Of a stretch of 64,000 nt of DNA, positions 37,604 through 38,524 are shown piece after piece. Position 1 is the first letter of the stretch, and every line of letters starts with the position of its first letter. The stretch comes from Parcubacteria bacterium C7867-001 (lineage in GTDB: Bacteria > Patescibacteriota > Minisyncoccia > Phycocordibacterales > Phycocordibacteraceae). The DNA lies in the NCBI GenBank assembly GCA_001189095.1, contig LFCK01000001.1:20133-84132 (forward strand). The letters run 5' to 3'. The translations under genes and the position numbers were made by a program. Under the pieces are notes generated by a model. That model was not told the DNA's origin. It did not search any database and was given only the letters and a program-made list of their open reading frames with translations.

Positions 37604-38524
37604 ATGCTAGGCTTAGGGGTAGTGGCAAACAGGCACCTTGCACGGTCAGTCGTACTTCAAACCCTCTTCGAGTGGGATACCTCGCACGTTCCGGATGCTG
37701 AAGTTGCAGCGGTTCTCGGACGCAACTGCGAGGAATTCGGCGGAGCCGATACCGACAAGCCGTTCATGGAACAACTCCTTCAGGGCGTCATAGCAAAACG
37801 CACCGATCTCGATCTCGTGATAGCGAAAGCGGCTCCTGATTGGCCGATAGAGAAAATCGCTCCAGTTGACCGCAACATTCTCCGCATTGGGCTCTTTGAG
37901 CTTCTGTTCGCCGATCGCGCGCAGGTTCCTGCGAAAGTCGCTATCAATGAAGCTATCGAGCTCGCAAAAGTATTCGGTGGCGAAAGCTCCGGACGCTTCG
38001 TGAATGGCGTTCTCGGTGCGGTCTATAAGGAAATGGGTGAGCCGGGCAAGGATGAGGTCGGCAAGAAAAAGACGATCCGCCGTGAAGATCTCCCACTTGA
38101 GAAGCTTGGCGGCGCCGTGGTCTACACTTTTCATGACGGTCAGTACTATCTTGCGCTCGTGCATGACGTTTTTGGTCGTTGGACGCTCTCAAAGGGGCAC
38201 ATAGAAAAGGATCCGAGTCCTGAAGAAGGCGTTGTCCGCGTGGTGAAGGAAGAGCTCGGGCTTACCGCAACCGTGCATGAAATGGTCGGAGAAAATGAAT
38301 ACGTCGCTTCGCATCCTGAAAAAGGAAAGGTTCGAAAGCACGTGTACTTCTATCTTGTTTCGACCGATTTCGAACCGCTCGTTCTCAAGAAAAGCGGTGG
38401 GCTTGATGACGCCAAATGGTTCCGCCTCACCGACATCCTCGACCTCAATTTCTACGACGACATGCTCCCAATCGTCACCGCAGCGGTGCAAAAACTACTT
38501 GATAAGTCCTCGACGCGTGCATAG
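37604..38524 (+). CDS. nusB: NusB antitermination factor fused to a C-terminal NUDIX hydrolase domain
   Basis: The NusB domain has [11 protein letters not shown] and [28 protein letters not shown]. The Nudix box is [23 protein letters not shown]. Confidence 0.7.
   Translation: [306 protein letters not shown]

Follow-up and report, generated by a model that had tools for sequence, protein, structure and literature searches.

The window examined here, a 64-kb stretch of Parcubacteria DNA (64,000 nucleotides), carries an uninterrupted open reading frame between rpmF and rnc (37604..38524, + strand; 306 aa from its mechanical, annotated start at ATG 37604), in which a NusB domain, a linker and a Nudix-fold domain follow one another (Table 1). 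The first-pass annotation had described a NusB antitermination factor fused in frame to a NUDIX hydrolase, and the fusion itself is borne out: one frame matches both the Pfam NusB and the Pfam NUDIX models above their cut-offs. The core of that interpretation stands because the NusB–linker–Nudix architecture is real, conserved and undescribed. The start codon is probably GTG 37622 and not ATG 37604, as 109 of the 120 close homologues begin with MANRHLARS, the N-terminus that corresponds to GTG 37622; the upstream ATG is thus probably wrong, and the protein would have 300 residues.

Table 1. Features of the nusB-nudix locus and of the second Nudix gene in the window.
Feature	Position (nt)	Strand	Residues or length	Support
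Second Nudix gene, stand-alone	19084-19503			Pfam 64.8 bits; canonical REVAEE box
rpmF (ribosomal protein L32), upstream neighbour	37209..37544	+	111 aa	Pfam, TIGR01031, synteny
Perfect GC-rich hairpin	37564..37600	+	17 bp	20 nt past rpmF stop; centroid -35 kcal/mol, z = -4.8
nusB-nudix gene	37622..38524	+	300 aa	Probable start GTG 37622 to stop
NusB domain, seven helices	37622..38041	+	1-140	Pfam, TIGR01951, AF2, Foldseek
Flexible Lys/Glu-rich linker	38042..38095	+	141-158 (~18 aa)	AF2, identity comparison
Nudix-fold domain, Ap4A/Ap6A-hydrolase type	38096..38521	+	159-300	Pfam PF00293, PDB matches, dN/dS
Degenerate Nudix box	38195..38263	+	192-214 (23 aa)	Gapless alignments
rnc (RNase III), downstream neighbour	38572..39258	+		TIGR02191 252.5 bits

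Both neighbours named in the first-pass annotation are secured by their profile matches, and 47 nt separate the stop codon of the fused gene from rnc. The rpmF product has a long Lys/Ala/Glu-rich C-terminal tail; the gap between rnhB and rpmF received no identity from Pfam or Rfam. The perfect hairpin said to precede the gene is present, but it is not special to this gene. Hairpins like it, rich in GC and closed by 3-nt loops, come after many of the window's stop codons, seven others being of the same style, and close relatives have a hairpin at the same place after rpmF, with different sequences and often with a T-run behind it. A clear T-run is absent here, which is why the consensus terminator scan does not flag this hairpin. 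It has no copies elsewhere that would make it a dispersed repeat, and no Rfam family reaches threshold on it. It is an ordinary gene-end (terminator-type) hairpin of this genome, and a nusB-specific regulatory element is rejected both by this gene-end class in the window and by the unrelated sequences in relatives.

A sequencing or assembly error, or a missed stop, might in principle join two separate genes into one such frame, and the first-pass annotation had asked for this check. Next to no probability attaches to such an origin: the same frame, with 306 identical residues, occurs on five contigs from independent assemblies and samples; fused homologues come by the hundred from NCBI, JGI, ENA and Logan, both domains being present in every homologue listed; and in 80 loci the linker region shows purifying selection and not one stop codon. 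An artefact or frameshift is thereby ruled out.

The NusB domain and the linker

In its classical form NusB is about 140 aa long and stands alone; decades of work have been devoted to this core transcription factor, which is nearly universal in bacteria. On the boxA of nascent rRNA it joins ribosomal protein S10 (NusE) and nucleates the rRNA antitermination/folding complex. The assignment of residues 1 to about 140 to NusB, made at first from motifs, is confirmed by PF01029, which matches residues 13-142 with 116.7 bits against a cut-off of 23.1, and by the NCBIfam nusB equivalog TIGR01951, with 122.9 bits against 88.35. The AF2 model places helices at residues 5-138 in the all-helical, seven-helix NusB fold (pLDDT mostly 80-95), and Foldseek superimposes this part on Aquifex NusB in the NusB-NusE-BoxA complex (3r2c_A) with a TM score of 0.89 and an rmsd of 1.8 Å; 1tzv and 1eyv are further matches. 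In E. coli NusB, the residues that contact BoxA RNA or NusE include F122, which stacks on BoxA U8, E81, and Y18, which lies at the NusE interface (PMC3177189). Their counterparts here are F126, invariant in the family alignment, D83, a Glu-to-Asp exchange conserved in at least 90% of members, and F16, a conserved aromatic residue. In its equivalog score, its fold and these three residues the domain resembles the NusB proteins of known structure from E. coli, Aquifex, Thermotoga and M. tuberculosis, from which the Parcubacteria protein differs by the additional linker and the 140-aa Nudix domain. By these sequence measures the N-terminal domain is an orthologue-grade NusB and not a NusB-like paralogue. 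The six-frame translation of the window contains no second NusB, and neither an rRNA operon nor a boxA lies within its 64 kb.

To our knowledge, the only well-known protein in which a NusB-like domain is fused N-terminally to an enzyme domain is the 16S rRNA methyltransferase RsmB/Sun. The two resemble each other in that general layout, and RsmB models do match the NusB part of our protein, but the best of them, restricted to that part, falls far short of its cut-off (59.7 bits versus 319). An RsmB-like protein is thus rejected: the methyltransferase domain is absent here, and the NusB part is a true orthologue.

The linker between the domains, already noted as Lys-rich, differs in length across the family, and in the AF2 model pLDDT falls below 50 over residues 141-151, with a pTM of 0.48 for the whole. 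The linker is predicted to be disordered, with two domains that fold independently and adopt no fixed orientation. Such a predicted arrangement would suit a fusion of convenience, in which NusB and a house-cleaning Nudix enzyme merely share a polypeptide and act independently. Relatives of the Nudix domain do exist as stand-alone proteins of about 140 aa, and genomes of the candidate phyla radiation (CPR) are compact and streamlined. This explanation nevertheless appears quite improbable to us in view of how the fusion is maintained.

Spread of the fusion and selection on it

The domain-architecture comparison called for by the first-pass annotation shows PF01029 and PF00293 together in 240/240 homologous clusters among the matches listed. 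Relatives are encoded in at least 598 species-representative genomes of Parcubacteria/Paceibacteria, and each of the 80 loci examined holds a full fusion within the shared gene order dnaE/rnhB/rpmF/nusB-nudix/rnc/smc, rnc being the next gene downstream in 79 of the 80. In a library of representatives at 50% identity, a NusB domain is present in almost every full-length relative of the Nudix part, even where identity has fallen to about 28-30%, which argues against mere convenience. The fusion is old, and in the Parcubacteria/Paceibacteria lineages sampled NusB normally takes this form. We found no published description of it in the literature on NusB and Nudix proteins, including that on Patescibacteria/CPR; databases and annotation pipelines name it plain "NusB" and ignore the Nudix domain.

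Purifying selection acts strongly on both domains. The dN/dS ratio is about 0.06-0.10 for the Nudix domain versus 0.05-0.06 for NusB, rough values because dS is saturated, and identity is 80% over NusB, 74% over the Nudix domain and lowest, 67%, over the linker. Constraint on the Nudix domain is about equal to that on NusB, and dN/dS and identity together rule out that it is decaying or pseudogenised. This also speaks against two independently acting partners, since a free enzyme that had lost a catalytic Glu, as described below, should decay. Moreover, the genome already has a separate Nudix gene with a canonical box, the one that the first-pass annotation had reported and that Pfam confirms (Table 1), and the same Nudix subfamily also occurs fused to other nucleic-acid-binding modules.

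The Nudix domain and its box

The Nudix assignment of the first-pass annotation passes its HMM threshold: PF00293 matches residues 183-287 with 51.3 bits, well above the cut-off of 21.1. The best match in the PDB is the Aquifex aq_158 Ap4A hydrolase (3i7u; E 1.4e-6, TM 0.85, 28% identity), followed by the Ap6A hydrolase Ndx1 of T. thermophilus (1vc8; E 3.3e-6, TM 0.84). Sequence and model, the latter with the alpha/beta/alpha Nudix fold, both place the domain nearest the small Ap4A/Ap6A-hydrolase (NUDT2-like) branch; in fold it lies nearer to that branch than to the NAD-decapping NudC or to RppH. With the members of that branch, which include the C. elegans and human (NUDT2) enzymes, it shares the fold, a WTxxKGH signature, a Lys before the box, a Lys in the next strand and a C-terminal Tyr; it differs from them in three positions of the catalytic apparatus, described below, and in being attached to NusB where they are free. 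The signature is common to the human and C. elegans Ap4A hydrolases, RWTLSKGH in our protein aligning with HWTPPKGH.

RppH and Dcp2 are likewise Nudix proteins, and they act on RNA 5' ends. The similarity to BdRppH (3ees) is clearly lower than that to the Ap4A hydrolases, in sequence (E 3.6e-3) as in fold (TM 0.63), and together with the incomplete catalytic box this rejects an RppH-type RNA pyrophosphohydrolase. Dcp2 has a helical N-terminal domain hinged to its Nudix domain; its fold matches to our model are two-domain coincidences with an rmsd of 13-16 Å. Among the top fold matches there is also the Nudix domain of NrtR (3gz8).

The putative ligand site is well kept. K191, K239, F184 and Y278 are, we assume, the equivalents of the ligand-binding K36, K83, Y27 and Y121 of the C. 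elegans Ap4A hydrolase, and would then be the phosphate-binding Lys (K191, K239) and base-stacking aromatic residues (F184, Y278) of such enzymes. Across 48 diverse fused representatives they are retained in 47 (K191), 47 (Y278), 44 (as Lys or Arg at 239) and 42 (F184).

It is the Nudix box itself that departs from the expected pattern. The first-pass annotation had called it complete. When the consensus GX5EX7REUXEEXGU is placed by gapless alignment to the Aquifex Ap4A hydrolase, T. thermophilus Ndx1 and the human and C. elegans Ap4A hydrolases, position 7 holds a proline, P198 (38213-38215), in place of Glu, and position 16 holds V207 (38240-38242) in place of the Mg-binding Glu of REUXEE, which reads RVVKEE here. 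R206 (box R15) and E210 and E211 (box E19 and E20) are retained. V207 is the equivalent of C. elegans E52, and the equivalent of C. elegans E103 is a Gly in 45 of 48 fused members, although in the loop regions this mapping (of the Y76 and E103 equivalents) depends on the alignment. P198 and V207 are fixed across the 120 close clusters, and an Asp at box position 6 (D197) is invariant. A complete box is excluded by these alignments and by the statistics of the family.

Over the wider family the picture is mixed. The Glu of the 'RE' pair is retained in 12/48 diverse fused representatives versus 28/35 stand-alone relatives, and the full catalytic set in 8/48 versus 27/35; among consensus-like clusters, 73 of 120 have the complete set. 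Sister lineages have a canonical box, and since canonical boxes are scattered over the tree of the NusB domain, catalytic residues must have been lost repeatedly across the family. In the window's lineage key catalytic residues have been lost.

The change at position 16 has close parallels in proteins of known behaviour. It is the position engineered out (E58A) in structures of the human Ap4A hydrolase. The equivalent Glu-to-Ile change, RILGEE, inactivates NUDT9, and the NUDT9-H domain of human TRPM2 (RILRQE) binds ADPR without hydrolysing it (PMC6461439). Like our protein, TRPM2 joins a Nudix domain to an unrelated functional module, and in both families canonical ancestors, catalytic in the case of TRPM2 and probably so here, gave rise to derived members in which the first Glu of REUXEE is replaced by an aliphatic residue; the derived TRPM2 members (RIL...) still bind ligand (PMC6461439). 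The parallel has its limits: NUDT9-H belongs to the ADP-ribose pyrophosphatase branch, its partner is an ion channel, and the protein is eukaryotic.

These findings bear directly on the activity suggested in the first-pass annotation, hydrolysis of RNA 5' ends, nucleotide alarmones or NAD caps, which is plausible for the canonical-box relatives and poorly supported for the window's own protein, with V207 at the metal-binding position. Brought to the rRNA transcription complex by NusB, an active tethered hydrolase would strip the nascent leader RNA of its 5'-pyrophosphate or of an Np4/NAD-type cap, or else break down Ap4A-type alarmones on the spot, and would so prime the leader for processing or decay alongside RNase III. 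Sequence and fold do point to the Ap4A/Ap6A hydrolases, a branch that includes enzymes acting on Np4 caps (cf. PMC8833179, PMC7044304). The constant proximity of rnc and rpmF suggests a setting of rRNA maturation, but adjacency of nusB to rnc is uninformative on the Nudix part specifically. The invariant D197, which might substitute in part for Glu 7, could together with E210, E211 and R206 sustain a residual or altered catalysis. Because many relatives have a fully canonical box, catalysis may even be the main selected function of the family, the window's lineage being an exception that compensates elsewhere. Against an active enzyme stand the substitution of a Mg-coordinating Glu by Val, of a kind that abolishes activity in NUDT9/TRPM2, the Gly at the E103 equivalent, the distance from BdRppH, and the repeated loss of catalytic residues from a domain that is nevertheless strongly constrained. 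On balance we regard hydrolysis by the window's protein as a possible but rather doubtful reading.

A proposed binding module in rRNA antitermination

Based on the above data, we propose that the gene encodes a housekeeping NusB with a tethered, probably non-hydrolytic Nudix module that binds a nucleotide or an RNA 5' end, a reading to which we give a probability of roughly 0.55; what we infer in it is the loss of catalysis, the identity of the ligand and any effect on antitermination. The fused protein would be the NusB of this organism, acting with S10 (NusE) on the boxA of nascent rRNA. Its Nudix domain would descend from the small Ap4A/Ap6A-hydrolase branch; as a canonical box survives in many members, the ancestor was probably an active hydrolase. 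Given that two Glu residues of the box are lost, that the ligand residues are retained and that the domain evolves slowly, it would most likely bind a nucleoside-polyphosphate moiety without hydrolysing it efficiently. For the ligand we see two kinds of candidate: the end of the nascent leader RNA, with its 5'-triphosphate or an Np4 cap, and a free nucleotide or dinucleoside polyphosphate. Instead of working as an enzyme, the domain would then give the antitermination complex an anchor or a sensor.

There are precedents for enzyme folds in such a capacity. SuhB, an enzyme-fold protein, stabilises NusB/E in the rRNA antitermination complex (rrnTAC), and catalysis is not the point (PMC6614801, PMC6614797). 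The Nudix domain resembles it as an enzyme fold with a possible non-catalytic role in that complex, but SuhB has an inositol-monophosphatase fold and is a separate polypeptide, and an equivalence of the two roles is a conjecture by analogy. The Nudix effector domain of NrtR offers a second precedent for a non-catalytic part with an enzyme fold (PMC2330246). NrtR and AraR couple a non-catalytic Nudix-like effector domain to a nucleic-acid-binding domain, as the NusB-Nudix protein may do; there, however, a winged-helix DNA-binding domain is the partner and ADP-ribose or a sugar is bound, whereas the Parcubacteria protein has an RNA-binding Nus factor in that place and carries its two domains in the opposite order.

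In a more specific version of the proposal, the Nudix domain would turn the Parcubacteria NusB into an anchor or sensor within the rRNA antitermination complex, either by holding the 5'-triphosphate or Np4-capped end of the nascent leader or by binding a dinucleoside-polyphosphate or nucleotide alarmone. We consider this extension unlikely as it stands. If it were true, rRNA antitermination, folding and RNase III processing would be coupled to the status of the RNA 5' end or to stress signals, and the Nudix domain might take over the part that SuhB plays in E. coli in stabilising NusB/E. The canonical-box relatives would then be antitermination factor and enzyme in one, and lineages of the window's type their descendants that only bind ligand.

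Whatever the role of the module, a strongly conserved Nudix domain is part of the normal NusB in the sampled CPR branch, which comprises thousands of protein clusters and at least about 600 species representatives. Given the degenerate box, annotation as a hydrolase should not be the default for these proteins. With canonical and degenerate boxes side by side, the family amounts to a natural experiment on the conversion of an enzyme domain to a binding module, for which TRPM2 is the parallel. The fusion also gives a testable handle on whether rRNA antitermination complexes communicate with the chemistry of RNA 5' ends or with Np4N alarmones, and on how organisms with minimal genomes assemble their rRNA transcription machinery.

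The fusion, its fold and its distribution

The gene nusB-nudix is an uninterrupted ORF in the window ORF scan, and the first-pass annotation was right that it joins NusB in frame to a Nudix-fold domain. Both Pfam domains exceed their cut-offs within this one ORF, PF01029 at residues 13-142 (116.7 bits against a curated 23.1) and PF00293 at residues 183-287 (51.3 bits against 21.1). The NCBI equivalog model for NusB, TIGR01951, is also passed (122.9 bits against 88.35), while no NCBI Nudix subfamily model came near its own cut-off, the top one being MutT with 23.4 bits against 148. 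Since 109 of 120 close homologues begin with MANRHLARS, the GTG at 37622 is most likely the real start, predicting a protein of 300 aa whose numbering is used below for model anatomy, Nudix box and residue comparisons. In close relatives (L001-L022), the rpmF hairpin is followed by a -10-like motif, GCTATACT, that lies 20-40 nt upstream of the start of nusB. Its window counterpart is the degenerate GCTAGGCT, and its position just 8 nt 5' of the GTG suggests that the 5' leader is very short or absent in C7867-001.

The AlphaFold2 model (mean pLDDT 86, pTM 0.48) places a seven-helix domain at residues 5-138 and an alpha/beta/alpha domain at 159-299. Residues 141-151 between them form a disordered linker (pLDDT < 50), and the pTM fits two bodies without fixed mutual orientation. 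The N-terminal half superimposes on NusB of the NusB-NusE-BoxA complex (PDB 3r2c, TM 0.89, rmsd 1.8 Å), with further matches to 1tzv and 1eyv. In E. coli NusB, F122 stacks on BoxA U8, which E81 reads, and Y18 is at the NusE interface (Stagno et al., PMC3177189). By alignment these correspond to F126 (invariant in the fused family), D83 (at least 90% conserved) and F16 (invariant in a closer alignment of fused relatives, A2). The C-terminal half is closest to Aquifex Ap4A hydrolase (3i7u, TM 0.85, 28% identity) and T. thermophilus Ap6A hydrolase Ndx1 (1vc8, TM 0.84), followed by the C. elegans and human Ap4A hydrolases, the NrtR Nudix domain and mycobacterial MutT1/Rv2985; BdRppH is clearly farther (TM 0.63). 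Ranking of PDB entries by sequence search agrees with this order.

The architecture is widespread. When 5.8 billion proteins were searched, the best 120 clusters listed (79-100% identity) all carried both PF01029 and PF00293, as did all 120 further clusters listed from a profile search (55-69% identity). With the Nudix part alone as query, 148 of 1.84 billion representatives at 50% identity matched at E <= 1e-10, and NusB precedes Nudix in nearly all full-length matches (>= 270 aa), down to about 28-30% identity. One genome per GTDB species yielded at least 598 loci encoding a relative. In the best 80 of these, the alignment spans residues 1 to about 295 in all 80; their sources include Kaiser-, Adler-, Nomura-, Zambryski-, Lloyd-, Yonath- and Taylorbacteria as well as Paceibacterota. 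The order dnaE(-)/rnhB/rpmF/nusB-nudix/rnc/smc is retained in essentially all 80, shorter patterns being consistent with contig ends. A sequencing or assembly artefact, such as the frameshift that the first-pass annotation wished to see checked, is refuted by these hundreds of two-domain relatives and by the identical ORF on five contigs of independent assemblies, including Logan SRR29904085 and JGI 3300001199.

Among the representatives matched by the Nudix part, this subfamily is also joined to Sigma70_r4 and a DnaA-C HTH (P0231) and to an Endonuclease V fragment (P0157). In P0228 (577 aa), some 300 N-terminal residues not identified by family precede NusB and NUDIX. Many MAGs with the Parcubacteria-type locus (L002, L004, L007 etc.) are labelled 'uncultured Candidatus Saccharibacteria bacterium', and the close homologue P0097 is labelled Bacillota; both labels probably reflect errors of taxonomy in the records they come from.

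Gene-end hairpins and neighbouring small ORFs

The perfect hairpin reported ahead of nusB-nudix is real. It is one of a window class on the (+) strand, with 11-17 perfect or near-perfect base pairs, 0-20 nt past stop codons, and seven further GC-rich members with 3-nt loops; most lack a clear T-run and are missed by a consensus terminator scanner. Such hairpins look like the usual gene-end signal of this genome. Close relatives have a hairpin at the equivalent site after rpmF, with an unrelated sequence; in many cases a T-run comes next, ahead of GCTATACT upstream of nusB. Because of this class and the relatives' hairpins at the same place, the element is the terminator-type gene-end hairpin of rpmF; the window class and the unrelated sequences rule out a NusB-specific element.

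Features of the nusB-nudix locus and other window features (window positions)
Feature	Position	Strand	Remark
tRNA-Thr(TGT)	19001-19074		adjoins stand-alone Nudix gene
Stand-alone Nudix gene	19084-19503	+	139 aa; canonical box GGRCDVGETIEQTLRREVAEETAI
dnaE		opposite	upstream of nusB-nudix
rnhB	36242-36832		upstream neighbour
rnhB-rpmF gap	36833-37208	+	about 380 nt
Small ORF	36874-37149	+	91 aa; called by two independent pipelines
Hairpin	37134-37162		perfect 14 bp at end of 91-aa ORF; T-run after
rpmF (L32)	37209-37544	+	neighbour
Hairpin	37564-37600	+	perfect 17 bp
GCTAGGCT	37606-37613		
nusB-nudix	37604-38524	+	306 aa
rnc	38572-39258		neighbour
Small ORF	39302-39508	+	gene-end hairpin after
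Small ORF	39853-40215	+	gene-end hairpin after
smc			downstream of nusB-nudix
Further hairpins	27288, 31395, 39513, 40221, 42476, 46302, 57007	+	GC-rich, 3-nt loop

L32 is usually about 56-60 aa long; here it has about 111, the Pfam match covering the first 50 or so and the rest forming a Lys/Ala/Glu-rich tail (...KEDAKHKKAQKEGRAEKHEVHSHVEEVVKPAKTKAAGKSEAKARAGKGDK). The rnhB-rpmF gap, with sub-threshold Rfam matches only, of the generic terminator kind, could encode an unknown small protein or else an sRNA. Neither its 91-aa ORF nor the two small ORFs between rnc and smc match a Pfam family; the start of the first of the latter resembles a signal peptide (MFMKKKRLAFAASILFAWFFAVQTNA), and the second resembles a membrane protein.

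State of the Nudix box and of putative ligand-binding residues

The first-pass annotation described a complete Nudix box (GX5EX7REUXEEXGU). Gapless alignment with the Aquifex, Thermus, C. elegans and human Ap4A hydrolases corrects this, since two box glutamates are replaced, by Pro198 at position 7 and by Val207 at position 16, the Glu of 'RE' (motif RVVKEE). These substitutions are fixed in 120/120 close clusters (pattern GHIExD[PA][ST]PxxGVxRVVx[ED]ELGL). Among 48 diverse fused representatives, the 'RE' Glu is kept in 12, being otherwise mostly K, V, I or A, and the full catalytic set in 8; the set is found in 73 of 120 consensus-like fused clusters and in 27 of 35 related stand-alone proteins of about 140 aa, 28 of which keep the 'RE' Glu. 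On a tree of the NusB domain only, canonical boxes are interspersed among degenerate ones, and the catalytic residues erode stepwise in the window clade, from EREEE or ERKEE in sisters through KRVEE to PRVEE. This scatter and erosion indicate that the ancestral fused domain was probably catalytic and that catalytic residues were lost many times.

Val207 occupies the E58A site of engineered human Ap4A hydrolase chains (PDB 4ick/4ijx, 1xsa), a mutation reportedly chosen for structures since it impairs catalysis. RVVKEE also represents a change of the same kind, at the same position, as RILGEE of NUDT9 and RILRQE of TRPM2. The first REUXEE Glu is the one that coordinates the catalytic Mg2+ of NUDT9, and NUDT9 carrying RILGEE has no activity. 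Human TRPM2 NUDT9-H (RILRQE) binds ADP-ribose without hydrolysing it, whereas those TRPM2 channels of invertebrates that have a canonical box do show activity (PMC6461439). By analogy, we strongly infer loss of catalysis in the window lineage. For relatives with a canonical box, the active hydrolase on NusB that had been proposed is plausible, whether it removes caps, acts as a pyrophosphohydrolase or cleaves Ap4A. In the window protein it is less likely: R206, E210 and E211 are retained and an invariant Asp197 stands next to the lost box Glu, so some activity is conceivable, but V207 and G260 speak against it.

Fused Nudix residues aligned with C. elegans Ap4A hydrolase, whose residues we take to have the roles listed (counts among 48 fused representatives; equivalences within loops vary with the alignment used)
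Residue	C. elegans	Role	Conservation
F184	Y27	aromatic	kept 42/48
K191	K36	phosphate	kept 47/48
V207	E52	catalytic	Glu in 12/48
K239	K83	phosphate	K or R in 44/48
G260	E103	catalytic	Gly in 45/48
Y278	Y121	aromatic	kept 47/48

The degenerate domain remains under selection. Compared with 21 loci (>= 70% identity), the NusB, Nudix and linker segments show 80, 74 and 67% amino-acid identity and dN/dS of 0.05-0.06, 0.06-0.10 and 0.07-0.25, rough values with dS saturated. The Nudix columns conserved at >= 90% in 38 diverse fused proteins are G164, W187, T188, K191, Y/F243, G260, W266 and Y278, with no box glutamate among them; by its sequence the domain looks like a binder. The second, separate Nudix gene is present as first described and, at phmmer level, unrelated to the fused domain; with its canonical box, it leaves the genome at least one conventional Nudix hydrolase. 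A fusion without functional coupling is disfavoured by this separate gene, by retention of the fusion across deep divergence and by strong constraint on Nudix despite its lost catalytic residues.

Proposed role of the tethered Nudix module on NusB

The best explanation is that nusB-nudix encodes the NusB of this lineage, to which a Nudix module of the Ap4A-hydrolase type is tethered. In the window lineage this module would most likely bind a nucleoside-polyphosphate moiety without efficient hydrolysis, candidates being the nascent leader's 5' end, whether 5'-ppp or Np4-capped, or free Np4N or nucleotide, and once bound it might serve as an anchor or sensor within the antitermination complex. 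The data presented here establish the architecture, its conservation, the fold class, the state of the box and the selection on it; ligand identity and the effect on antitermination are conjecture. TRPM2 offers a precedent, its fused Nudix domain being catalytic in ancestral forms and later binding-only, as do NrtR and AraR, whose Nudix effector domains sit on nucleic-acid-binding proteins. A further precedent is SuhB, an enzyme-fold protein that stabilises NusB/E within the rRNA antitermination complex (PMC6614801); its phosphatase activity is regarded as separate from this role (PMC6614797).

A full-text literature search found no paper on a NusB-Nudix fusion. Precomputed Pfam annotations do show the architecture, yet sources name only NusB; every profile-search cluster with a source name is a 'transcription antitermination factor NusB' or 'N utilization substance protein B'. 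NusB and Nudix are both textbook families, and to our knowledge RsmB is the only known case of a NusB-like domain fused to an enzyme; NCBI family-model scores rule out nusB-nudix being RsmB. The fusion affects a core factor of transcription in a large radiation of bacteria and lends itself readily to testing.
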